A stretch of 64,000 bases of DNA from Candidatus Aquilonibacter sp. GTDB lineage: Bacteria > Verrucomicrobiota > Verrucomicrobiia > Limisphaerales > UBA11358. Made by a program: the position numbers and the translations under genes. The stretch spans positions 2,157-66,156 of the forward strand of contig DATJRH010000047.1 in NCBI GenBank assembly GCA_035504945.1, read 5' to 3'. Positions 1,530 through 23,749 of the stretch are shown one piece after another. Numbering within the stretch: the first letter of the stretch is position 1; each line of letters starts with the position of its first letter. The notes under the pieces are model-generated. The model saw only the letters and a program-made list of their open reading frames with translations, searched no databases and was not told the origin of the DNA.

Positions 1530-2543
1530 CTAAAATTGTTTCAAGAACCGCACGTCGTTTTCGTAGAAAAGGCGGATGTCGTTGATGCCGTAGCGGAGCA
1601 TGGCGATGCGTTCGATGCCGAAGCCGAACGCCCAGCCCGTCCAGACTTCGGGATCGTAGCCGACGTTCTCGAAGACCTGCGGATGCACCATGCCGCAGCC
1701 GGCGATCTCCAGCCAGTCCTTGCCCATCTTCTTCACAAGCGCGGTGGTGAAATCAATCTCGTAGCTCGGCTCGGTGTAGCTGAAATAATGCGGCCGGAAA
1801 CGGATCTTCACGTCGCTGCCCATGAGTTCTTTGAAAACAAATTCCACCGTGCCTTTCAAATCGCCAACGGTCACATTTTTATCAACGTAAAGCCCTTCGA
1901 TCTGGTGGAACGTGGGATTGTGCGTGGCGTCGGCGTTGTCTCGGCGATAGACGCGGCCGGGCACGATGATTCGCACGGGCGGCGGCTGTTTTTCCATTAC
2001 GCGGATTTGGACGGACGAGGTGTGGGTGCGGAGCAAGCGTTTGTCGGTAGTATTGAGATAAAACGTGTCCTGCGAATCGCGCGCCGGATGATCTGCCGGC
2101 GTGTTGAGCGCGTCGAAGCAATGATACTCGTCCTCGATCTCTGGCCCGTCGGCGACGGCGAAACCAATTTTGCGAAACGCGCGGACGATGTCGTCGGTGA
2201 CTTGCGTGAGCGGATGCAATTTGCCAAGCGCGCGGCGGCGGCCGGGCAGAGTGAAATCGGTCGGCTCCTTCGGCAGCGCGGCTTTCAGCTCCAATTCCTC
2301 GCGGCGCGAGGTGAGCGCGGCTTCGAGTTCGACTTTGGCGGCATTGATGAGCTTGCCGGCGGCGGGGCGTTCTTCTTTCGAGAGCGTGCCGAGCTGTTTC
2401 ATCAGCGCGGTGAACTTGCCATTCGGTCCAATCCACGCGCCTTTGGTTTGTTCCAAGGCGGCGAGGTCGGGCGCGGCTTTGAGTTCCGCGAGCGCGGCTT
2501 GTTTGAGCGGTTCAATTTCGTTCAGGAACGACATAGACTTCAA
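1530..2543 (-). CDS. pheS: Phenylalanine--tRNA ligase alpha subunit
   Basis: 337 aa with class II aaRS motifs (...RTHTSSVQIR..., ...GRVYRRD..., ...[20 protein letters not shown]). Confidence 0.95.
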   Translation of the reverse strand: MKSMSFLNEIEPLKQAALAELKAAPDLAALEQTKGAWIGPNGKFTALMKQLGTLSKEERPAAGKLINAAKVELEAALTSRREELELKAALPKEPTDFTLPGRRRALGKLHPLTQVTDDIVRAFRKIGFAVADGPEIEDEYHCFDALNTPADHPARDSQDTFYLNTTDKRLLRTHTSSVQIRVMEKQPPPVRIIVPGRVYRRDNADATHNPTFHQIEGLYVDKNVTVGDLKGTVEFVFKELMGSDVKIRFRPHYFSYTEPSYEIDFTTALVKKMGKDWLEIAGCGMVHPQVFENVGYDPEVWTGWAFGFGIERIAMLRYGINDIRLFYENDVRFLKQF

Positions 2544-2635
2544 AGATTTTGAGACAGAATTAACAAAATTTACAGAATTCTTTTTGCGATTCGGCTCGTG
2601 AGGACACTCGCTCCGCCATTTTATTTTCAGTGAAT

Positions 2636-2667
2636 GAAAAACGGGCGGACCTTTTCGGGCCGCCCGT
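2636..2667 (-). terminator. Rho-independent terminator downstream of rplT
   Basis: Minus strand: stem ACGGGCGG / CCGCCCGT (2641-2648 / 2660-2667) followed by a run of about 5 T (plus-strand A run 2637-2641). Confidence 0.6.
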
Positions 2668-2692
2668 TAATGGATTCAAATTGAAATTTCGA

Positions 2693-3076
2693 TTACGCCT
2701 TTGCCAAAGTGGCGCCGGGCTTGGCCTTAAGCGCATTCTTGGCGACGTTGACCAATTCGGTAAAACCGGCGGCATCCTGCGCGGCGATGTCGGCGAGGAC
2801 TTTGCGGTCGAGCGCGCATTTGGCGGCCTTGAGTCCTTCCATGAAGCGGCTGTAAGTCAGCCCGGTGGCGCGGACGGCGGCATTGATGCGGATTTGCCAG
2901 AGATAACGGAACTCGCGTTTTTTGCGGCGGCGATCACGGTAGGCGTATTGGCGGCCGTGGTCAACGGCGTCGCTGGCGTAACGGTAAAGCTTGCCGCGCT
3001 TGAGGCGGAAGCCTTTGGCCGCACGAATCATGCGTGTGCGGCGTTTGCGGGAAGCGGGAGAATTGGTGACTCGCAT
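2693..3076 (-). CDS. rplT: 50S ribosomal protein L20
   Basis: 127 aa, MRVTNSPASRKRRTRMIRAAKGFRLKRGKLYRYA... Confidence 0.95.
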   Translation of the reverse strand: MRVTNSPASRKRRTRMIRAAKGFRLKRGKLYRYASDAVDHGRQYAYRDRRRKKREFRYLWQIRINAAVRATGLTYSRFMEGLKAAKCALDRKVLADIAAQDAAGFTELVNVAKNALKAKPGATLAKA

Positions 3077-3082
3077 AAAAAT

Positions 3083-3292
3083 TTAGTGGCTGAACGGTAG
3101 ATTTTGCGTGATGCGGTAGGCGTCAGTCGCATGAACGACAGAGGCCTTGCCGAGCCGGCGGAGGCGTTTGGCGTTTTTGGTTTGGGCCAGATGGCGGCGG
3201 CCGGCGGGAAAGTGGGTCACCTTGCCGGTGGCGGTAATTTTGAACCGCTTGGCCACGGATTTCTTCGTTTTGATGCCTTTAGGACGTCGCAT
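3083..3292 (-). CDS. rpmI: 50S ribosomal protein L35
   Basis: 69 aa, basic, MRRPKGIKTKKSVAKRFKITATGKV...; immediately upstream of rplT. Confidence 0.9.
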   Translation of the reverse strand: MRRPKGIKTKKSVAKRFKITATGKVTHFPAGRRHLAQTKNAKRLRRLGKASVVHATDAYRITQNLPFSH

Positions 3293-3417
3293 AAATTTAA
3301 TTCAATTGCAAAAGAGCACGAAATATAGTCGCAGCCGCCCGGTGGGGCAAGCGCAAATTTTGGTCGCGTTGGAAAAAATTGTTGCTGGTAAGAAAAGCGA
3401 TACAGTCCAACTTTGAA

Positions 3418-3789
3418 TTATTTTTGTGGCGAGTCGCCAGCCGATATTTCCATAAATGATTTTTCGGCTGGCTTGGCTGGGGATGCTGGCTGTGTTCCGC
3501 TTGGCTTTGGGATGTCCTCGGCATTTGCGGATGGTTTGTTAATGGCTGTCAAACGACTTTCTGCTTCATTCACCGCTTGTTCAATGGGGTCTGTTTCTTC
3601 TTTCGTTAATTCCCTGCAAGTGGGTTTGTTATCTTTATTATTTTCCAATACGACAATCTGTTTTGGTTCAGCAATTCCGCCCGGACTGGTTTTAATCGCA
3701 TGATTCAATGTCCAGTAAGTTGCAAATATCCCTTCTGACAGATGCGGCAAGCGGTCTGACCAAAAACCATGTGTGTTCACACCTTTCAC
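3418..3789 (-). CDS. Hypothetical protein (AT-richer islet)
   Basis: 123-aa ORF with no recognisable motif; low-complexity Pro/Ala/Lys C-terminus. Confidence 0.35.
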   Translation of the reverse strand: MKGVNTHGFWSDRLPHLSEGIFATYWTLNHAIKTSPGGIAEPKQIVVLENNKDNKPTCRELTKEETDPIEQAVNEAESRLTAINKPSANAEDIPKPSGTQPASPAKPAEKSFMEISAGDSPQK

Positions 3790-3917
3790 ACTGATAGCCT
3801 GATTTAACCCGGCTTAGGGTTTATCGGTTTGAAACCGCTAAACCTCCGGCGGGTTCTGAAGGGGGACGCCCTGAAAAGCATTATTTTCTCAATTTTGACC
3901 AGACGATTTTCCTTTTA

Positions 3918-4430
3918 ATGCTCACTCGGCCAACAGAGGAGACAAAAGAATTTCGCGTGAAGTTGATATTGGCTTTCCGAGCCGCCCGCGAAAAATTGCG
4001 TCCAGTTGATACAATACTGCTGACGATTCCCGAAAAATGGCGAAAAACTTTCAAGGATGAATTTTACATTGCGCTTCTTAACATCTACGGCGAATCATTC
4101 GACGCATCAAAGAACAAACCAAGTTGGGTTGGCCATTGGACAAATCATTTTATTTACTCCCCGATTTATGACGGGCTTTCCCATGAACTAAAATCCAAGC
4201 GTGCCGCGCATTGCGATTTGACCGGCAAAGACCCGGACTTTATCCGATTGCATCAATTTTTAGAGGAGCACGCGAAAGACGAACTGAAAGAACAAATTGC
4301 GAAAACGACAGCCGTGCTTCAAATGTCCGGCTCAAAACATGATTTTGCCGAAAATTACAGAGCGGTTTTTCATGGAGTTTCTCAAATCAAATTTGACGAT
4401 TTATTGAAAGATGATTTCGGGAGCAATTAG
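3918..4430 (+). CDS. P63C-domain-like phage-derived protein (possibly N-terminally truncated)
   Basis: 170 aa. The pattern ...WRKTFKDEFYIALLNIYG...KNKPSWVGHWTNHFIYSPIYDGLSHELKSK...IRLHQFLEEHAKDELKEQI...MSGSKHDFAENYRAVF matches my recollection of the P63C domain (FPDEFY..RL.gw...krP..g..Tn.iVY..L.pgv.eEL...lHQ.Lt...G...L..hl). Confidence 0.5.
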   Translation: MLTRPTEETKEFRVKLILAFRAAREKLRPVDTILLTIPEKWRKTFKDEFYIALLNIYGESFDASKNKPSWVGHWTNHFIYSPIYDGLSHELKSKRAAHCDLTGKDPDFIRLHQFLEEHAKDELKEQIAKTTAVLQMSGSKHDFAENYRAVFHGVSQIKFDDLLKDDFGSN

Positions 4431-4491
4431 AGAGCAACAAAATAATCACACACGACCCAAATTTTGACTTTTGGGCCTGGATTACCGCCGA

Positions 4492-5109
4492 TCACGGACT
4501 GCTAGTGTTCGTGGGCGTGGACTCGGGCAGCGGGTTGACTGGCGCACCGGCGTTGAGTTGGGCGAGGACGGCGGTGGTCAGGTCGTTTTCGTTGTTATTG
4601 TAGAGCACCGCGGGCGTGCCGTTGACGGTTTCGGCATCGGAGTCAATGACCAACGAATAACCACCGGCCTGGGCTTTGGTGGTAATGGCGGCCTCGATTT
4701 CCTGCAGGATATCCGCGCGCATTTGCTGCTTTTGTTGGGCCAGCCTGGCCTGGGCATCGTGTTCAAACTGATCCATCGCGGCCTGGGAGCTTTTTAATTC
4801 TTTCAACTTGGCATCAGCGGCCTGCTGGCGCTTGGCGCGCTCGTCGGCGGAAATGGCCTGATCATTGGCCTGTTGCAACAACTGCTGGTATTGGGTGTTG
4901 ACCAGGTTCAAATTGGTGAGCATTTGCTTGTCGTCGTTGTCCAGTTGCTCGGCGTGTTGCTGGATGTCAATTTGTGCTTGTTTGGTTTTCCAATAGCCGT
5001 CGAAGAGTTTGCGCAAATCCACCGTGGCAATCCGGCTTTGCGCCAGTGCGGGAACGCTCAAAAACGTCAGCAATGAAACCGTCAAAATAATTGTTCGCAA
5101 AATTTTCAT
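4492..5109 (-). CDS. skp: Periplasmic chaperone Skp/OmpH family
   Basis: 205 aa with a signal peptide (MKILRTIILTVSLLTFLSVPALAQ), IATVDLRKLF start and a Gln/Lys/Ala-rich coiled coil. Located two genes downstream of bamA in the same orientation. Confidence 0.8.
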   Translation of the reverse strand: MKILRTIILTVSLLTFLSVPALAQSRIATVDLRKLFDGYWKTKQAQIDIQQHAEQLDNDDKQMLTNLNLVNTQYQQLLQQANDQAISADERAKRQQAADAKLKELKSSQAAMDQFEHDAQARLAQQKQQMRADILQEIEAAITTKAQAGGYSLVIDSDAETVNGTPAVLYNNNENDLTTAVLAQLNAGAPVNPLPESTPTNTSSP

Positions 5110-5166
5110 GGAAATAGGAAATCAGAATTCGTCCGCGACGCCAACTCAAAACTGGTGGTATTCATG

Positions 5167-7563
5167 TTAAAATTTGTGCAGCCGGAAAAATGAATCGTCG
5201 TTGGTGGAGGGCAGAGTGACGGTGTTCCAGCCATTGCTCAACACGGGCGGTTGCGGCACGGTTGTCCAAGTGTTGGTCGAGGTGAGATTTGTGTTGGATT
5301 CCAAAATGTATTCCGGCTGGAAGGCGCGCCACGCGAGGGTGACGTTGCTGGTGTCCGCCGGGGCAATGGTCAGCGTCGGTTGTGACGCCAAAAGAATTTT
5401 GGCGAGGAAGGCGTCGTTGGTGCCGTGCAGCGTGCTGTGAAAGGCGTCCAGCGCCGGGAAATTTGTCGAAATTGTCTGGCCGACGACATAGGCGTTGCCC
5501 GCCGGGTCAACCGCGATGCCATAGCCGTAATCATTGGTCGAGCCGCCCAGATACGCGGAATAAAGCAGCGCGGATGCGTTCGTGTTAATCGCGGTGACAA
5601 AAGCATCGCTGCCGCCGGAATTGGTCGCAGACAGGAAACCGGCTGTGTTGGCCGTCGGAAAATTAGTCGAACCAGCGACGCCCGTGACGAAAGCGTCGCC
5701 CGCTGGATCCAGCGCCACGTCATATCCCAAATCCATGCTGTTGCCGCCAAAGACGGCGGAATAGGCGATGCCGACCGTGGCGCCATTGGTGATTTTTGTC
5801 AGGAAGACATTGGTGGTCACGGGGTAGGTGAAGTTCAGGTTGTTCGTGAGATAATTGACAAAGATGTTCGTCGCGGTATTTGGAAAGTCCGACGAGGTGG
5901 TTGCGCCAACCACGTAGGCGCTGCCGGCGGCGTCACATGCTATGCGCGAGGCCACATCATAGTTCGTGCCGCCGAGATAAGTTGAATAAACCAGATTGGA
6001 ACAATTGGGCAAAGGCATGAATTTGGCGACGAATGCATCAAAGTTGAAAGTCTGGCTTGGCGAACCGTAAGTGAATCTGTTCAGATGGTGGAACAGCGCG
6101 TTTGTCGTGGTCGGGAAATTGGTCGAATCCGTTGTTCCGGCGACATACACATAGCCCGCGGGATCCACCGCTATGCCGTTGCCAATATCGTAGTTTGTGC
6201 CGCCAAAATAACTGGAGTAAGTCAAATTAGAGCCGCCGGCGGAAATCACGGTTACGAACGCGTTGCCGTTGTAGACGGAATTAGTGCTGCCCAGATGGCG
6301 CTGATATGCATTGGTTGTCGTCGGAAAATTAGTAGAACTGGTGCGGCCGGTGACATAAGCATTACCATTCGAATCCAAGGCAATGCCAATGCCTTCGTCG
6401 GTCCCACTGCCGCCGAGATAGCTCGAATAGACCAATTGCGAGCCGTTGGTTTCCAGTTCCGTCACAAAAGCATCGGGGTAGTAGCCATAGGACTGACCGA
6501 GAAAAACGATTTTCGTTCCGCCAATTTTCGGTTGAAACACATTGGTAGTCGTCGGGAAATTTGTAGATTCGGTATATCCGGTGACAAAGGCGTGGCCCGC
6601 GCCGTCCACCGCCAAATCCACCGCGCCGTCCTCGGAACTGCCGCCAAGATAGGTGAGATAAATGAGGTTCGTCCCGAGATTGCCGAATTTGGCCACAAAA
6701 GCATCACCGGAAATCGTGCCTCCGGCAAAGTTCGTTTGATAGCCATTGGGCTGGCTATTGGTTGCGAATTTTGTCGAGAGTGTCTCACCCGCAATATAAA
6801 CGCAGCCGCTGTTGTCCACCTTCACCGACCAGGCGGTATCGCCATTATTACCGCCGAAATAAGTAGAATAGCTCAAAATCGGATCAATCACCAGCGGCAG
6901 ATTGCGATTGTAATTGCCGGCGGCAAATCCAACGGTGTGCGCGCCCAAAATTTTATAGCCGCCGCTAATTTCTTCCCGCACGCCGCCGGCCATTTGATAG
7001 ATCAACGGTTTCGGCTGGCGGATTTCGCCGTCGGCCAATGCCAAAACCAGTTCGCCGCGCGCATTGATGGAAATTTTATCAGTGCCGTCGAAGCGGATGA
7101 CAATGGCATCTGGGTTCACCCCCGGCGCGATGTCGAAGTCATATTCAAGTCGCTGTTGGTTGCCATAATAAACCAAACCGATGCCGGGATAAATGTCCGT
7201 AACGCGGACTTTGGCAAAAGTGGAGATGCCGGAACGCCATTGCGCCGGATTGCTGCCGACAAAGTAACTGATTTTGCCGGATAATTCGGCATCGCCGGAA
7301 ATTTGCGCCCGCGGATTTGCGCCGATGAATTGCATCCGCACGGTGGCGGCTTTGTCTGCGGATTTGCACAGGGTGAATTGCGCTTCGGTCGGTGCAATCA
7401 AGAATTGTGCGTCGCTGCCTCGGGCGAGAAATCGGGTCGGGGAACCGGCCTCAAAATAAAGCGGCACATTGCCGAACGGCGCGGCAGTCTGCGCGCGTGC
7501 TGTCAACACCATCGCCAGCCCAGCGAGCGTTGCGAACAGAAATTGTTTCCGAGAAAGAGTCAT
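5167..7563 (-). CDS. Secreted SBBP (beta-propeller) repeat protein
   Basis: Many repeats of the type YSTYLGGS..D.G.GIAVD..GNAYVTG.T.STNFPTT. Start chosen at MTLSRKQFLFATLAGLAMVLTARAQ (signal peptide), 1 nt after the bamA stop; the track ORF extends to 7629. Confidence 0.8.
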   Translation of the reverse strand: MTLSRKQFLFATLAGLAMVLTARAQTAAPFGNVPLYFEAGSPTRFLARGSDAQFLIAPTEAQFTLCKSADKAATVRMQFIGANPRAQISGDAELSGKISYFVGSNPAQWRSGISTFAKVRVTDIYPGIGLVYYGNQQRLEYDFDIAPGVNPDAIVIRFDGTDKISINARGELVLALADGEIRQPKPLIYQMAGGVREEISGGYKILGAHTVGFAAGNYNRNLPLVIDPILSYSTYFGGNNGDTAWSVKVDNSGCVYIAGETLSTKFATNSQPNGYQTNFAGGTISGDAFVAKFGNLGTNLIYLTYLGGSSEDGAVDLAVDGAGHAFVTGYTESTNFPTTTNVFQPKIGGTKIVFLGQSYGYYPDAFVTELETNGSQLVYSSYLGGSGTDEGIGIALDSNGNAYVTGRTSSTNFPTTTNAYQRHLGSTNSVYNGNAFVTVISAGGSNLTYSSYFGGTNYDIGNGIAVDPAGYVYVAGTTDSTNFPTTTNALFHHLNRFTYGSPSQTFNFDAFVAKFMPLPNCSNLVYSTYLGGTNYDVASRIACDAAGSAYVVGATTSSDFPNTATNIFVNYLTNNLNFTYPVTTNVFLTKITNGATVGIAYSAVFGGNSMDLGYDVALDPAGDAFVTGVAGSTNFPTANTAGFLSATNSGGSDAFVTAINTNASALLYSAYLGGSTNDYGYGIAVDPAGNAYVVGQTISTNFPALDAFHSTLHGTNDAFLAKILLASQPTLTIAPADTSNVTLAWRAFQPEYILESNTNLTSTNTWTTVPQPPVLSNGWNTVTLPSTNDDSFFRLHKF

Positions 7564-18574: not shown

Positions 18575-19266
18575 AAACAAAAATTCTCATCGTCGAGGAT
18601 GACCCGCACATTTTGCTGGGTTTGGAGGAAGTGTTGAAGAGCGACGGCTTCGACGTGGCGTCGTGCAATCGCGGCGACCTCGCGCTTGACGCCGCCACAA
18701 AACACAGGCCCGCGCTCGTGGTGCTGGACGTGATGCTGCCCGGCGCGAGCGGCTACGACGTTTGTAAGCGACTGCGCGCGAAAAAATTTGCCGCGCCGAT
18801 TCTCATGCTTACCGCCAAGGGGCAGGAAATTGACAAGGTCGTCGGCCTTGATCTCGGCGCAGACGATTACGTGACCAAGCCGTTTGGCGTCCGCGAATTG
18901 CTCGCGCGCATCCACGCGCTGCTGCGGCGCGGCGGCGGCGAGGCCTCGGCGCAAGCCGTCGACGACAAGCCATTCACAATCGGCGGCGCGACGATTGATC
19001 CGAAAACATTCCAGGTGAAGCACGGGAAAGCCGTGGAGGAGCTTACGGCCAAGGAATTGAAACTGCTCCAGATTTTCCACGCGCACGCGGGCGAGGTGCT
19101 GTCGCGCGACAAATTGCTGAACGAAGCCTGGGGCTACAATTATTATGGCACGACGCGCACGCTGGACCAGGTCATTATGCAGCTTCGCAAAAAACTCGGT
19201 GACAACGGCGGTGAGCCGCGACATCTGCTTACCATCCACGGCGTCGGCTACAAACTGGTCGCGTGA
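18571..19266 (+). CDS. OmpR-family response regulator
   Basis: Start MKTKILIVEDD overlaps the kinase stop (ATGA). Receiver domain (DVMLPG, KP) plus a winged-helix C-terminus (...LTAKELKLLQIF...IHGVGYKLV). Confidence 0.9.
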   Translation: MKTKILIVEDDPHILLGLEEVLKSDGFDVASCNRGDLALDAATKHRPALVVLDVMLPGASGYDVCKRLRAKKFAAPILMLTAKGQEIDKVVGLDLGADDYVTKPFGVRELLARIHALLRRGGGEASAQAVDDKPFTIGGATIDPKTFQVKHGKAVEELTAKELKLLQIFHAHAGEVLSRDKLLNEAWGYNYYGTTRTLDQVIMQLRKKLGDNGGEPRHLLTIHGVGYKLVA

Positions 19267-19354
19267 CCGCGGTCGCAAACAAATTCTGCCGGTCAAGAAG
19301 GTGCCAAAGACTCTTAAAATTTGAAATCCACGCCCAAATGCCTCAAAAACCATT

Positions 19355-19477
19355 GCTGAATTTGACAATGGCCAGCTACACGTGTCGAAGGCCATGTCAA
19401 AAATTTACACGACCATCTACACGCGTCGGAAGCCATGTTGAAATTTTACCTGACCATCCCAACGTTTCGACGGTCAG
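19355..19477. repeat. Three exact-register 41-bp tandem units, each with a central 6-8-bp palindrome (degenerate copies flank on both sides)
   Basis: Units 19355-19395, 19396-19436 and 19437-19477, each pair about 26/41 identical by manual alignment. Centres are ACACGTGT, ACGCGT and AACGTT. Outer arms TGGCC/GGCCA and TGACC/GGTCA in units 1 and 3. Confidence 0.8.
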
Positions 19478-19648
19478 GTTGAAAATTGGCGATGTGCAAT
19501 GAGCGCAGCCCGGGCCGGGGACATTGACAAGGCCGTCAAGGACGGTAAATTGCCCCCATGAAACCTTTGGTCCAACCCGGCGGAACTACCCAGAACCACA
19601 GTTCTGCCCACTTCTTCTTAGCCACAGGTTAGGCGTCGTCAGCACACA

Positions 19649-20002
19649 GTGCAAAAATCGAGACACATAATTTTGTTGCTGCTCGTCACACTGGCAGCGA
19701 TTGCTGCGGCTTTGTTCTGGTCGCTCCGTCCCTTGCTCACGCCACTTTTGTATCTTCACCCGACAGATTGGACGGACGCAGACCTTGTCAGGCATATCTG
19801 GCATTTTCGCCTTGTGCAGCCGGAGTGGGTCAGCACTCCGCCGGATTATATGAGATGGTGTGTGGCAGAGACGTTGGCTCGACTTACCGTTGTACTTCTT
19901 GGCTGGGCTGTGAGCATCATGTTTATTGAGCGGCGATATTCCAGGAGTCACAGAAAGCCGACGCCTAACACTGCGCTGGAGCCAACGCCGACTGCCCCTT
20001 GA
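19649..20002 (+). CDS. Cassette ORF 1: small membrane protein (GTG start)
   Basis: 117 aa with 2 hydrophobic segments. Starts 14 nt after GTTAGGC (19628-19634). The C-terminus reads into the repeat element (...PNTALEPTPTAP). AT-richer than flanks. Confidence 0.5.
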   Translation: MQKSRHIILLLLVTLAAIAAALFWSLRPLLTPLLYLHPTDWTDADLVRHIWHFRLVQPEWVSTPPDYMRWCVAETLARLTVVLLGWAVSIMFIERRYSRSHRKPTPNTALEPTPTAP

Positions 20003-20089
20003 GTTTATGGATGGTTTGAGTTATACAACCATTATCGAGCTTGCGGAGCCACTCGCCCGTCGGCGTGGCTCAGCTTTGGACCGTTAGTC
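19963..20089 (+). repeat. attC-like / REP-like inter-cassette element 1 (127 bp)
   Basis: GCCTAAC (RYYYAAC) at 19963-19969 and GTTAGTC at 20083-20089. Internal imperfect stem GAGCCAACGCCGAC (19979-19992) / GTCGGCGTGGCTC (20059-20071) with one bulged base. Confidence 0.5.
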
Positions 20090-20101
20090 GTTTTTGCGGG
20101 T

Positions 20102-20449
20102 ATGAAACTTATCAGAACAAGATTGGTGATTTCGTGGTTGCTATTTGCGGCGTTCCTCGCCGCGCTTTGGCTGCATTTTTACACGGTCGCCATTTTTGTG
20201 CTTTTTCCCGCCATCGTGGTTGCCCGGCTTCGCATACCAACACCGAGGCTTTCCGCATTGGAACGGCGAGTCAGTTGGATTTTCGCTGTGATTTTACTCG
20301 CGGGACCACCTTCCCTGATTATTTTACACCAAGCATTTTCGCCAGCCCTTGCAATGACGGGTGGAATTCTTGGTACCATTTTGGTTTTCGCCTATGGTAT
20401 TTTTATAGATTATTCCAAGTTTAAACAGTCACACGATTCAAGCGCCTAA
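20102..20449 (+). CDS. Cassette ORF 2: small membrane protein
   Basis: 115 aa with 3-4 hydrophobic segments. ATG lies 12 nt after GTTAGTC. The stop TAA (20447-20449) lies inside the next GCCTAAC box. Confidence 0.55.
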   Translation: MKLIRTRLVISWLLFAAFLAALWLHFYTVAIFVLFPAIVVARLRIPTPRLSALERRVSWIFAVILLAGPPSLIILHQAFSPALAMTGGILGTILVFAYGIFIDYSKFKQSHDSSA

Positions 20450-20553
20450 CACCGCGCTGGAGCCAAAGGCGGAAGACGGTTGAAAGTTGATGGTTGAGAG
20501 AAAATTCCTGCTTGCGGTTTTTAGTGCCGTGATTCAGCTTTGGATCGTTAGGC
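20444..20553 (+). repeat. attC-like / REP-like inter-cassette element 2 (110 bp)
   Basis: GCCTAAC (20444-20450) pairs perfectly with GTTAGGC (20547-20553). GAGCCAAAG (20460-20468) pairs with CTTTGGATC (20538-20546), 8/9. The left module is nearly identical to elements 1 and 3. Confidence 0.5.
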
Positions 20554-20560
20554 ACAGGAT

Positions 20561-20803
20561 ATGTTTCTCAGCCCGTGGAATCTTGTTCAGGCCATTCTCT
20601 TTGCACTTGGGATTTGGTGGTGCAAGGAGATACTTTCACGCTGGCGAGATGACCTTGCAAAGCTGCGCAAGCCTGATGACCAGGCAGACCGTGTGGTCGT
20701 TATCATATTCTGGATTATTACAGCTTTGGTTTTGCTGCTATGTGTCCGATTTGCTTTGAATATCGGTGGGAGCATCGTGCGTGGGATTCGAGACCTTCGA
20801 TAA
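20561..20803 (+). CDS. Cassette ORF 3: small membrane protein
   Basis: 80 aa with 2 hydrophobic segments. ATG lies 7 nt after GTTAGGC. Confidence 0.5.
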   Translation: MFLSPWNLVQAILFALGIWWCKEILSRWRDDLAKLRKPDDQADRVVVIIFWIITALVLLLCVRFALNIGGSIVRGIRDLR

Positions 20804-20858
20804 AGCGCAAGGCAGAGCATTTTGGTTTCGGATTGCGCCAGTTGGTATCGAGCCTTGC

Positions 20859-20886
20859 GCCCAACACCGCGCTGGAGCCAAAGGCC
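20859..20886 (+). repeat. Third copy of the left module only (GCCCAACACCGCGCTGGAGCCAAAGGCC)
   Basis: Matches 20444-20471 at nearly every base. No right half (GTTRRRY) follows, and it abuts the 3' end of the convergent TPR gene. Confidence 0.6.
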
Positions 20887-20893
20887 ATGGCTT

Positions 20894-21661
20894 TTACAAT
20901 TTCCCCATCAAACTTTTCGCGCGGCGAATCCAGACGCGGTCGCGTTTGCGCTGGAACGCCGGCGCATGAACATCGTCGCTCAAAACGTCCTTGAGTTCGG
21001 CGCGGGCGAGTTCGGGCTGGTTCTTCGCAAGGTAAAGTTCGGCGAGCTGCACTTTGGCGCGCGGATAGGAATGGCTTTGCGTGATGTGCTGCCAGTATTG
21101 AAGCGCATTGTCGGTTTCGCCAAGTGCGGTGAGTGTTTCGGCCAGCGCCATCATCGTGTGGCCGTAATCATGGTCGGGTTTTTCGTGCATCACGCCTTCG
21201 AGCAGCGGGCGCGCCTCGGCGGGACGTTTCATGCGGACGAGGCATTGGCCAAGATGCGCGCGGGTGTCAATGTCGTTCGGCTCGCGTTCGAGCGCGGCGC
21301 GATAGCACTTCTCGGCGTCGGCCAGTTTTCCGCGTTGAAAATAAACGTCGCCGAGCTGGAAATAATGATAGGCGTTGCCGATGTGATGGATTTGTGATTG
21401 AAGCTGCTTGATGCGCTGGCGGCTTTGCGCGCCGGGCAGTTCAAATCCGCGCGTGGCCGAAGGCGTGGCGCGATAGACGAAAAAGTAATAAAGCAGCGCC
21501 GTGATGCCCCAGCCGATGAGGATGAAAACCGCCCAGAGCCATTCGCGGTTGCGGAGCGCGTGAATGAACATCCAGAGTTGAAAGGCAAAGACCGGGAGCA
21601 GCCACAAATGATGCAGCAGATAACCGAAATTCAGCAGATTCGTCATCAACGAAGTGAACAT
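20894..21661 (-). CDS. Membrane-anchored tetratricopeptide (TPR) repeat protein
   Basis: 255 aa with two N-terminal TM helices followed by TPR-like repeats (YFQLGDVYFQRGKLADAEKCYRAALEREPND...). Confidence 0.75.
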   Translation of the reverse strand: MFTSLMTNLLNFGYLLHHLWLLPVFAFQLWMFIHALRNREWLWAVFILIGWGITALLYYFFVYRATPSATRGFELPGAQSRQRIKQLQSQIHHIGNAYHYFQLGDVYFQRGKLADAEKCYRAALEREPNDIDTRAHLGQCLVRMKRPAEARPLLEGVMHEKPDHDYGHTMMALAETLTALGETDNALQYWQHITQSHSYPRAKVQLAELYLAKNQPELARAELKDVLSDDVHAPAFQRKRDRVWIRRAKSLMGKL

Positions 21662-21775
21662 GGCGACAGGTTAAATTAAAAATGTCTCGTGGTAAAATGA
21701 CTAATTCCCCCAATTCGGACGGGTCAGTTGAGCGTTTGAGAATTTTCTTGTCCTCATGGTTTCATCATTTGCCCT

Positions 21776-22567
21776 TTGAATTGGCGGCTTGTTTTTGCCG
21801 TCAATTCTCTTTATCAATTTGCGCTCCGCGTGAACGACGCTTTGATCATCGTGCCGACTTACAATGAGCGGGCCAATCTCCCGCGCATGGCGCAAAGGCT
21901 TTTGGCGCTGCCGGTCGCGGTGGATTTGCTCGTCGTGGACGACAATTCGCCGGACGGCACCGGCAAAATCGCGGACGAACTGGCGGCGGAAAATCCGCGC
22001 GTCCACGTTTTGCATCGCAATGAAAAAAACGGGCTGGGCCGCGCTTACATCGCCGGGTTCAAATGGGCGCTGGAGCATGGCTACGAATTTATTTTTGAAA
22101 TGGACTGCGATTTTTCGCACGACCCGGAGGACATTCCCAAATTTCTCGACGCGGCGAAAAATGAAAATGCCGACCTCGTGCTCGGCTCGCGTTATTCCGG
22201 CGGCATTCGCGTCATCAACTGGCCGTTGCGCCGGCTGATGTTGAGCCGCACGGCGGGCATTTACGTCAAGGTCGTCACCGGGATGCCGTTTACCGACCCG
22301 ACCGGCGGTTACAAATGTTTCCGCCGCCGCGCGCTGCAAGCCGTCAACCTCGATGACGTGCGCTCGAACGGCTACAGTTTCCAGATTGAAATGACCCACA
22401 AGCTCTGGCGGCAGGGATTCAAAATTGTCGAGACGCCGATTATTTTCACCGAACGCGCCGAGGGCCATTCGAAGATGGCCGGCGGCATCATCAACGAGGC
22501 GTTTTGGATGGTTTGGCGGCTGTGGTGGCAAAATGGGCTGCGCCGCTCGCCGCGCAAACGCAAATGA
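21776..22567 (+). CDS. GT2 polyprenol/dolichyl-phosphate mannosyltransferase-like glycosyltransferase
   Basis: IIVPTYNERANL...VVDDNSPDGT...LHRNEKNGLGRAYIAGF...EMDCDFSHDP. An alternative GTG start at 21830 is plausible. Confidence 0.85.
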   Translation: MNWRLVFAVNSLYQFALRVNDALIIVPTYNERANLPRMAQRLLALPVAVDLLVVDDNSPDGTGKIADELAAENPRVHVLHRNEKNGLGRAYIAGFKWALEHGYEFIFEMDCDFSHDPEDIPKFLDAAKNENADLVLGSRYSGGIRVINWPLRRLMLSRTAGIYVKVVTGMPFTDPTGGYKCFRRRALQAVNLDDVRSNGYSFQIEMTHKLWRQGFKIVETPIIFTERAEGHSKMAGGIINEAFWMVWRLWWQNGLRRSPRKRK

Positions 22568-22604
22568 AATTTGCCAAACGCGCGCGGTGAATTAGATTGC
22601 GCCC

Positions 22605-23168
22605 ATGATTGTTTTAATCGTCGGCACGAACCGGCCGGGCAGCAACACGCGCAAGGTCGCCGCACACGTCGAGGAATTTTACCGCGAACTGAAAGTGCCG
22701 CTGCACGTTCTGGATTTGGCACTATTGCCGCCGGAAATATTCTCGCCGCGCTCCTATCTCGAAAAACCGGAATCCTTCCAGCCATTCGCCGACGCCATTC
22801 TGCAATCCGCCGGGCTGCATGTCGTTACGCCCGAATACAACGGCAGTTTGCCCGGCGTGCTGAAGTATTTCATAGACATGCTGAAATTTCCGGAAAGTTT
22901 CGAGCAGCGCCCGGTCTGTTTCACCGGCTTGGCGGCAGGCGTTTGGGGCGCGCTGCGGCCGGTCGAGCAGTTGCAGGCCATTTTCGGCTACCGCAACGCG
23001 CACATTTATCCAGTCCGCGTTTTTTTGCCGCAAATTTACAATTTGCTCGACGATTCGGGAAAATTGAAGGACGCCGAACTTTTGGAGCGCCTGAAAAAAC
23101 AGGTTGACGGCTTTGTGGATTTTGTGGAAAAGATCAAGGGCGCGAAATTACGCGGCGCAAAAGCCTGA
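22605..23168 (+). CDS. NADPH-dependent FMN reductase family protein
   Basis: 187 aa, MIVLIVGTNRPGSNTRKVA...VTPEYNGSLPGVLKYFID. Confidence 0.8.
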   Translation: MIVLIVGTNRPGSNTRKVAAHVEEFYRELKVPLHVLDLALLPPEIFSPRSYLEKPESFQPFADAILQSAGLHVVTPEYNGSLPGVLKYFIDMLKFPESFEQRPVCFTGLAAGVWGALRPVEQLQAIFGYRNAHIYPVRVFLPQIYNLLDDSGKLKDAELLERLKKQVDGFVDFVEKIKGAKLRGAKA

Positions 23169-23215
23169 ACGTTCTGCGGATAATTCCGTCCAACTCCAAG
23201 GAAAGGACAATCATT

Positions 23216-23749
23216 ATGAAATCAAACTGGTTCGCAACCCGGTTAATCGCCGGGACAATTCTTTTTTCCGCCGCCACGACCTTCGCCGCCACGCCCAAGG
23301 TCGGCGACACCGCGCCGCTATTCACCGGCACAAACCAGGATGGCCAGACCTTCAAGCTGGCCGACCTCATCGGCAAAAAAATCGTATTGCTGTATTTTTA
23401 TCCGAAGGATTTCACCGGCGGTTGCACGAAAGAAGCCTGCGGTTTCCGCGACCGCATGGGCGATTTGCAAACGAACAACGTCGCCGTCGTCGGCGTGAGC
23501 TATGATTCCGTTGCCAGTCACAAAAGTTTTGCCGAAAAATACAACTTGAACTTCACGCTCATCGCCGACCCGGAGGGAAAAATTGTTTCCCTCTATGATG
23601 TAAAGATGCCGATGATGAACATGGCCAAGCGCGTCAGTTTTCTCATCGGGCTGGACGGCAAAATCGTCCACGTGACCGACTCCATGAATCCGCAAACGCA
23701 CTTTGATGAAATGCAAGCCGCCATCGCGGATTTGCAGAAAAAGAATTAA
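23216..23749 (+). CDS. bcp: Secreted peroxiredoxin (Bcp/AhpC-TSA family)
   Basis: 177 aa with a signal peptide and the motif YFYPKDFTGGCTKEAC (peroxidatic Cys). Confidence 0.85.
   Translation: MKSNWFATRLIAGTILFSAATTFAATPKVGDTAPLFTGTNQDGQTFKLADLIGKKIVLLYFYPKDFTGGCTKEACGFRDRMGDLQTNNVAVVGVSYDSVASHKSFAEKYNLNFTLIADPEGKIVSLYDVKMPMMNMAKRVSFLIGLDGKIVHVTDSMNPQTHFDEMQAAIADLQKKN

Follow-up and report, generated by a model that had tools for sequence, protein, structure and literature searches.

Layout of the locus

We analysed a 64,000-nt stretch of contig DATJRH010000047.1 from Candidatus Aquilonibacter sp. (64 kb; hereafter the window). At 19524-20885, downstream of co-oriented histidine kinase and response regulator (HK-RR) genes and ahead of a convergent tetratricopeptide repeat (TPR) gene, it holds three small open reading frames (ORFs) that alternate with repeats of one family (Table 1). 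An earlier note, made from the letters of this DNA, had read the region as an integron-type cassette array without an integrase, that is, a group of clustered attC sites with no integron integrase (CALIN), and the modules, heptamers, ORFs and element lengths that it listed are all present. Our analysis bears out its reading: the repeat is linked to intI in relatives and has an attC architecture with covariation, a covariance model of the family finds canonical attC sites, the arrays are co-oriented and carry small ORFs in the same orientation, and the array is absent from syntenic relatives. The region is thus very probably a CALIN. Its most likely origin is an integron platform from which intI was lost, whereas the promoter region and an attI-like site were kept.

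The 23-nt left module GCCYAACACYGCGCTGGAGCCAA occurs in three copies (19963, 20444 and 20859), all on the + strand, and no further copy was found in the 64 kb with three mismatches allowed; 0.01 copies are expected by chance per window, and none of 100 shuffles reached three or more. A second conserved module, CAGCTTTGGAYCGTTAG, forms the 3' end of the first two elements. The first two elements start 481 nt apart and the third 415 nt further, again all on the + strand. ORF1, ORF2 and ORF3 begin 14, 12 and 7 nt past the successive heptamers; ORF1 extends 40 nt into the first element, and the stop codon of ORF2 (TAA, 20447-20449) falls within GCCTAAC of the second. The earlier note had called the ORFs AT-richer, and the G+C content of the array is 0.46-0.55 vs about 0.56-0.62 in the flanks.

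A Kyte-Doolittle scan gave two hydrophobic segments in ORF1, three to four in ORF2 and one to two in ORF3, which predicts small membrane proteins. Pfam and PADLOC gave no match to any of the three, and a DUF6541 match at E 0.034 among these searches was ignored. A scan of the window for tRNA and tmRNA genes found none, and hence no tRNA-linked island. An independently assembled sequence, Logan contig L117 (SRR8879135), is 100% identical to window 20058-23417 and terminates inside the first element, as short-read assemblies are expected to break at repeats.

Table 1. Positions of the array features and of the convergent neighbouring gene in the window
Feature	Position	Strand	Remarks
Promoter-like site	19524-19551	+	TTGACA-16 nt-TAAATT; cassette promoter (Pc) position; points into the array
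attI-like region	19582-19634	+	Ends in R box GTTAGGC (19628-19634); presumed crossover G|TT at 19628|19629
Heptamers GTTAGGC/GTTAGTC	19628, 20083, 20547	+	
Cassette 1	19629-20083	+	455 bp
ORF1	19649-20002	+	GTG start; 117 aa
attC1 (E1)	19963-20089	+	127 nt, intact; 129.5 bits, E 3.9e-38, full length
attC1, left half	19963-19992	+	R'' 19963-19969 (GCCTAAC); spacer 19970-19974; L'' arm 19975-19992
attC1, bulged bases	G19979, A19985	+	In L'' arm
attC1, variable region	19993-20058	+	66 nt
attC1, right half	20059-20089	+	L' arm 20059-20074; spacer 20075-20082; R' 20083-20089 (GTTAGTC)
Cassette 2	20084-20547	+	464 bp
ORF2	20102-20449	+	115 aa
attC2 (E2)	20444-20553	+	110 nt; 75.1 bits, E 3.4e-21
Cassette 3	20548-20885	+	3' end truncated
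ORF3	20561-20803	+	80 aa; AGGA 4 nt ahead of ATG
attC3 stump (E3)	20859-20885	+	27 nt; R'' GCCCAAC, 5-nt spacer, start of L'' arm
TPR gene	20894-21661	-	Convergent with the array

The repeat family and its link to integron integrases

Loci of the family were collected by scanning a 19-nt pattern, AACACYGCGCTGGAGCCAA, over one genome per GTDB species, which gave at least 116 stretches selected by the repeat alone and blind to integrases. Among the matches listed, the majority are Verrucomicrobiae, Limisphaerales or Verrucomicrobiota metagenome-assembled genomes (MAGs), and many of the listed stretches carry more than one copy in the same orientation, with as many as 8-10 in 8 kb. A tblastn search with IntI1, a query that agrees at 100% with the annotated IntI1 sequence, matched more than 13 of the motif-selected loci at 43-56% identity over ~330 residues. 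Four tested proteins reached 440-457 bits against NCBIfam TIGR02249 (integron integrase, cutoff 265), and the same four only 125-160 bits against the XerC/XerD models. The intI gene is divergent from the repeat array in L072, L007, L014, L048 and L049/L056; in L072 it lies at 2529-3518 on the - strand, and the repeats run from 5054 onward on the + strand. Co-oriented arrays adjoining intI are therefore found in relatives carrying the family, not in the window.

The arrangement of the copies was quantified with nhmmer over the 116 listed loci. All copies lie on one strand in 59 of the 60 multi-copy loci, with a median start-to-start spacing of 605 bp; a dominant ORF is present in 131 of 149 inter-repeat intervals and is co-oriented with the repeats in 111 of those 131. 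The repeats are members of the attC family found in chromosomal integrons of soil and peat bacteria of the Verrucomicrobiae type. The flanking genes of the window showed no synteny with the motif-selected loci.

The earlier note had allowed that the left module might instead be a dispersed repeat of the repetitive extragenic palindromic (REP) type. In a rival explanation of this kind, REP or miniature inverted-repeat transposable elements (MITEs) unrelated to integrons would punctuate an ordinary operon of small membrane-protein genes. The left module is indeed highly conserved, and its translation at the ORF1 end reads PNTALEPT; nhmmer found a single copy in 46 of the 106 fetched 8-kb loci. 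Nevertheless, we consider this explanation very improbable and reject the caveat, given that the window's three copies are all clustered, that the multi-copy loci are co-oriented, and that the family is linked to TIGR02249 integrases; the attC properties, the crossover signature and the comparison with relatives presented below argue in the same direction.

Several further observations concern the family at large. The sole multi-copy locus with copies on both strands, L056, has two attC sites on the + strand (1491-2062) beside four on the - strand (4472-7144), as would result from an inversion within the array or at its edge. Contig CAVWJH010000003.1 (192-256 kb), the source of L007, L019, L076 and L068, has intI at ~195-196 kb and 6-20 co-oriented attC matches per sampled 8-kb piece, out to at least 256 kb; it would be a sedentary chromosomal integron exceeding 60 kb, probably with over 100 cassettes. 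Within single arrays (L019, L072, L014 and others), at least four discrete attC length classes occur intermixed (99, 108, 127 and 128-129 nt). Each class has a conserved variable region of its own, and the 99-nt class was outside the seed alignment and was recovered by the model. Near-identical copies (up to 140 bits) in L073, L111, L003, L054, L029 and L061 come from bins assigned to Sulfopaludibacter (Acidobacteriota), Bifidobacteriaceae, a delta proteobacterium and Patescibacteria, either by misbinning of repeat-rich contigs or by cross-phylum cassette transfer. In two integrons of one MAG (CAWEAA010000004.1; L078 5531-6847 and L051 1897-3213), the intI match is split into tblastn pieces of aa 8-155 and 155-330, ~345 nt apart. 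The gene could be disrupted there, or it could hold an insertion or an intron-like element.

Architecture of the attC sites

An alignment of 99 distinct family copies (A2) gave a consensus that opens with R'' GCCTAAC, a 5-nt spacer ACCGC and GCTG[G]AGCCA[A]CG with five variable nt, continues through a variable region of about 49-70 nt, and closes with five complementary nt, CG-TGGCT-CAGC, an 8-nt spacer TTTGGATC and R' GTTAGGC. Family members are 99-131 nt long, and a few longer copies carry insertions. This family-wide parse, with spacers of 5 nt and 8 nt, replaces the L boxes CCAAAG/CTTTGG of the earlier note, which had left 9 nt on the left and 0 nt on the right, and thereby removes its caveat of non-canonical spacing.

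On the A2 structure, 96.7% of cells are paired, vs 17-39% after the 3' partner has been shifted by 1-3 columns. The R boxes do not vary at columns 5-7 and 128-130, and 97% of their cells are paired; in the stem (columns 13-30 / 104-119, with bulges at 17 (G) and 23 (A)), the value is 96.6%. Five stem pairs show two-sided changes. Covariation is present in the portion of the stem lying outside the selection pattern: columns 26/108 change in a compensatory manner between CG and GC (50 : 47), as do columns 28/106 between GC and CG (71 : 25), and columns 25/109 and 30/104 are likewise changed on both sides. Rfam has no attC family, and neither a scan of the region (E up to 10) nor one of the window (gathering threshold) returned anything relevant.

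A covariance model (R1) built solely from A2 was run, with filters off, on the class 1 integrons R46 and pFBAOT6, where its three best matches are known cassette attC sites: those of aadA2 (GTCTAAC...GTTAGAT; 31.6 bits, E 4e-8), aadA1 (28.7 bits, E 3e-7) and orfD (E 0.015), each on the correct strand and with exact ends. Like the family, the aadA1 and aadA2 sites have R'' RYYYAAC, R' GTTRRRY, a 5-nt left spacer and both bulges at coinciding positions, and in both groups position 23, counted from the first base of R'', holds the second bulged base (A, top strand). They differ in size, being 60 nt long with a 3-nt terminal loop, whereas the sites of the family have 108-129 nt and a variable region of 49-66 nt. 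That a model of this family recognises canonical attC sites is a further point against a REP or MITE origin.

Run in the same way on the whole window, R1 found only attC1 and attC2. The score of attC1 is near that of the top family members (~141 bits), and the site is 94-96% identical to copies in L075, L059, L082, L068, L066 and L014; its R' box has a single deviation from GTTRRRY, at position 6. In folding predictions, the bottom strand of attC1 adopts the hairpin of the family-wide parse (-24.4 kcal/mol, z = -2.6 vs shuffles). By comparison, attC2 is a decayed member of the 108-nt subfamily, intact copies of which reach 98-109 bits: its R'' and R' boxes pair perfectly (GCCTAAC/GTTAGGC), but four pairs of the L stem are broken (non-canonical). 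Of attC3 the right half is gone, and the stump ends 8 nt from the TPR stop codon, in keeping with the earlier description of a truncated last element; a full attC reaching into the 3' end of the TPR gene was rejected (R1, 11.1 bits, E 0.28).

By definition, a CALIN has two or more attC sites within 4 kb and no intI nearby (Cury et al., 2016, PMC4889954), and attC sites are about 57-141 nt long with a variable terminal structure of 20-100 nt (PMC4889954). In the window, attC1 and attC2 lie within such a distance on one strand, both fall inside the length range, and both have R''/R' core boxes with the AAC/GTT triplets. The L''/L' stem, with unpaired spacers and extrahelical bases, is complete in attC1 and impaired in attC2 by the broken pairs. 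Neither element is bounded by a target-site duplication (…GCCGAC|E1|GTTTTT… and …TCAAGC|E2|ACAGGA…), in contrast to what a MITE would lead one to expect.

Crossover signature

If cassettes are inserted by recombination at G|TT of R', the bases after R' belong to the next cassette and should pair with that cassette's own downstream attC, not with the attC that they adjoin. Across 39 cassettes, the 6 nt after R' matched the complement of the 6 nt before their own R'' at 3.51 of 6 positions, vs 2.28 of 6 for the contiguous upstream attC (Wilcoxon p = 7e-5; permuted mean 2.21 +/- 0.16, maximum 2.72). In cassette 1 of the window, GTTAGGCGTCG (19628) and CGACGCCTAAC (19959, own attC) are perfectly complementary over 11 nt; cassette 2 by itself is uninformative (3 vs 2 of 6). 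The cassettes thus appear to begin with the last 6 nt of their own attC, as for a G|TT crossover, a signature that also weighs against a REP or MITE repeat. Each of the three units in the window consists of a promoterless small ORF, 7-14 nt past the G|TT crossover, followed by its attC.

Absence of the array in relatives and homologs of the cassettes

A metagenome scan with the TPR protein yielded 80 ortholog loci (75-86% identity, 620 kb), most of which share glycosyltransferase family 2 (GT2) and peroxiredoxin neighbours. None of them contains an R1 attC match, and none encodes ORF1-3 or IntI. The response regulator side is different or not covered in all of these loci except L119, the closest relative (TPR 85%, MnmA 94% and response regulator 85%), in which the TPR and response regulator genes are convergent as in the window. 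There, the gap between the two genes is ~600 bp of unrelated sequence, vs 1,627 bp in the window; the 3' homology of the TPR gene to L119 stops exactly at the TPR stop codon, and nothing in L119 is homologous to 19520-19634. Given its absence from the TPR ortholog loci, the array is an insertion or a variable region, not the conserved operon that a REP or MITE explanation would imply.

Homologs of two of the ORFs were found in similar settings. An ORF1 homolog (43% identity) at L037 520-188 (-) has an attC of this family immediately after it (L037 96-224). ORF2 has five metagenomic homologs (57-68% identity), one of which (P0005, L200 1858-2250) has an attC match on either side (1707-1845 and 2203-2336). 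As in the window, 12 nt separate its G|TTAGGC boundary from the ATG downstream, and its neighbours differ from those in the window, which is again at odds with a conserved operon. Two other loci with ORF2 homologs, L198 and L199, are without attC of this family. At L198 4734-7590, the ORF2 homolog (65% identity) stands in a row of six co-oriented small ORFs of 79-155 aa, in which R1 found no match; this row may be a cassette array with a different attC family.

Left boundary of the array and the missing integrase

Upstream of the first heptamer, which the earlier note had called attI-like, TTGACA-16-TAAATT (10/12) is the best sigma-70-like match in 19200-21000. An equivalent TTGACA is found 50-100 nt upstream of the first GTTAGG in L072, L007, L014, L049 and L066, and from its sequence and position the site would act as the cassette promoter. 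The attI-like designation gained support from L072, a complete integron, in which positions 4813-4865 sit between intI and the first cassette, i.e., at the attI position. The 53 nt at 19582-19634 align to this segment with a score of 54 (200 shuffles, 18.9 +/- 2.5, maximum 34) and a BLAST E of 9e-7. Searched with up to 12 substitutions, a 44-nt window sequence found L072 only, the attI of the other complete integrons being too divergent to align. On these grounds, the window seems to keep a Pc/attI-like region.

A motif on the attI side, CTTARCC-N4-GTTAGGC, is shared by the window (19617-19634, CTTAGCCACAGGTTAGGC), L072 (4848-4865, CTTAACCACCTGTTAGGC) and L048 (CTTAACCCTATGTTAGGC), as CTTAGCC-N4-GTTAGGC in the first and CTTAACC-N4-GTTAGGC in the other two; the copy in L048 lies ~120-140 nt from the intI start. 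The attI simple site could have its L and R boxes in this motif. Between the response regulator stop (19266) and the Pc-like promoter, the non-coding sequence at 19372-19493 holds a 41-nt unit (consensus CCATCTACACGCGTCGAAAGCCATGTCAAAAATTTACACGA) repeated in tandem about three times (TRF, 2.1 copies, 80% identity). These repeats might be regulator binding sites or the scar of an event that removed intI.

No integrase accompanies this region. In agreement with the earlier note, tblastn with IntI1 gave no match in the 64 kb at E < 1e-3, and with three Verrucomicrobial IntI the best match in the window had E 0.03, with none near the array. An apparent similarity to the IntI N-terminus at 19474-19524 was dismissed given that its register relative to TTGACA differs from that in L072. 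Hence, of the components of a complete integron (intI, attI, Pc and cassettes), intI is absent, and as no integrase adjoins the array, it is filed as a CALIN.

One way to obtain such a locus is for an IntI encoded elsewhere in the genome to have inserted cassettes at an attG-type site at 19628, so that the sequence upstream would be native chromosome and never an integron platform. Off-target insertion is among the listed routes to CALINs (PMC4889954, PMC8618304), attG sites are cited in PMC13323075 (reference 71), and the lack of an intI remnant and of an AAC triplet in the putative attI L box of the window would fit. We regard this origin as unlikely, however, given that the 53 nt immediately 5' of the crossover share homology with what L072 has at its attI position, that the TTGACA promoter-like site lies at an equivalent upstream distance, and that the nearest syntenic relative, L119, lacks homology to 19520-19634; it also leaves the truncated last attC unexplained.

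In L072, an insertion sequence (IS; ~3528-4758; inverted repeats, CTTAAGGAGACGCTGA...; transposase gene, 3825-4676, - strand) lies 10 bp from the intI start codon and separates intI from the Pc/attI region. This configuration is a plausible intermediate toward an integrase-less array. It also bears on the possibility that the array is part of an active split integron, with intI displaced elsewhere in the genome by an IS-mediated or other rearrangement and all cassettes exchanged in trans. The IS in L072 marks a plausible break point for such a split, half of CALINs share their replicon with an IntI encoded at another place (PMC4889954), and attC1 is intact. We hold this to be doubtful, if less so than an off-target origin, since the four lost stem pairs of attC2 and the attC3 stump point to relaxed selection.

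Origin and expected behaviour of the array

A more far-reaching reading, to which we give only somewhat better than even odds, is that of a fossil integron platform, in which Pc and attI were kept, intI was cleanly removed, possibly by an IS-mediated event like that in L072, and the attC sites stand at three successive stages of decay (intact, mutated and truncated). The locus would then also point to an attC family, so far largely undescribed, that has four or more discrete length classes and builds cassette arrays exceeding 60 kb in Verrucomicrobiae of peat and soil.

If an IntI were supplied in trans, the bottom strand of attC would fold into a hairpin of R and L boxes with two extrahelical bases, and recombination at G|TT would lead to excision or insertion of cassettes. 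In such a process, attC1 looks competent, attC2 is decaying and attC3 is destroyed, so that at most cassettes 1 and 2 could be mobilised and cassette 3 would be fixed. The array could be expressed from the 19524-19551 site, by read-through of the upstream co-oriented HK-RR genes, or both.

A number of observations weigh against reading the locus as a CALIN and a likely platform remnant. The 19 kb upstream and the 43 kb downstream contain no intI, and no fragment of an intI pseudogene was found; activity here cannot be assumed. The attI-like assignment depends on a single 53-nt homology to one complete integron (L072), and the putative L box of attI in the window is TTAGC, not TTAAC. Predicted folds of attC2 are no better than those of shuffles on either strand (z about 0). 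Compared with the aadA sites, the right spacer of the family is 8 nt and not ~6 nt, and the first extrahelical base is G on the top strand where aadA has C; the family thus has C on the bottom strand at this position, where G is usual. The independent covariation events in A2 are few, as the changes track few subfamilies. Finally, no ORF3 homolog was found among the loci examined, and no database-wide search was made.

Comparison with known systems

CALINs are common, and their proposed origins are off-target insertion, intI loss and rearrangement (PMC4889954, PMC8618304); 83% have fewer than six sites, and 95% are without a recognisable intI pseudogene (PMC4889954). The window resembles the CALINs described there (PMC4889954) in being a small array of co-oriented attC sites with neither intI nor an intI pseudogene nearby, and in having cassettes without resistance genes and without an assigned function. 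It departs from typical CALINs in that it keeps attI-side homology and a promoter-like site, and in that one attC is decayed and one truncated.

The family as a whole is similar to sedentary integrons of the Vibrio cholerae repeat (VCR) type, which likewise have long (99-129 nt in the family), highly conserved attC sites and large co-oriented arrays beside a divergent intI, with cassettes that are mostly small ORFs of unassigned function. In contrast to the VCR type, the hosts are Verrucomicrobiae MAGs from soil and peat, and at least four attC length classes are intermixed; the window itself is only a three-cassette fragment. The only mentions of integrons in Verrucomicrobia that we found are in PMC4889954 and PMC8618304. 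In a peat study, most contigs with integron-type recombinases were not called complete integrons, and attC detection was suggested as a possible limit (PMC13323075). We consider the locus mildly unusual for a retained attI/Pc-like region combined with three stages of attC decay, and the family for very large arrays of multiple length classes.

For annotation, our results mean that three orphan genes for small membrane proteins are captured cassettes and not core genes, at a spot that was horizontally acquired. With the A2 alignment and the R1 model, cassettes of Verrucomicrobiae from soil and peat can be probed sensitively and in a lineage-specific manner, and the locus illustrates how CALINs can arise and decay.

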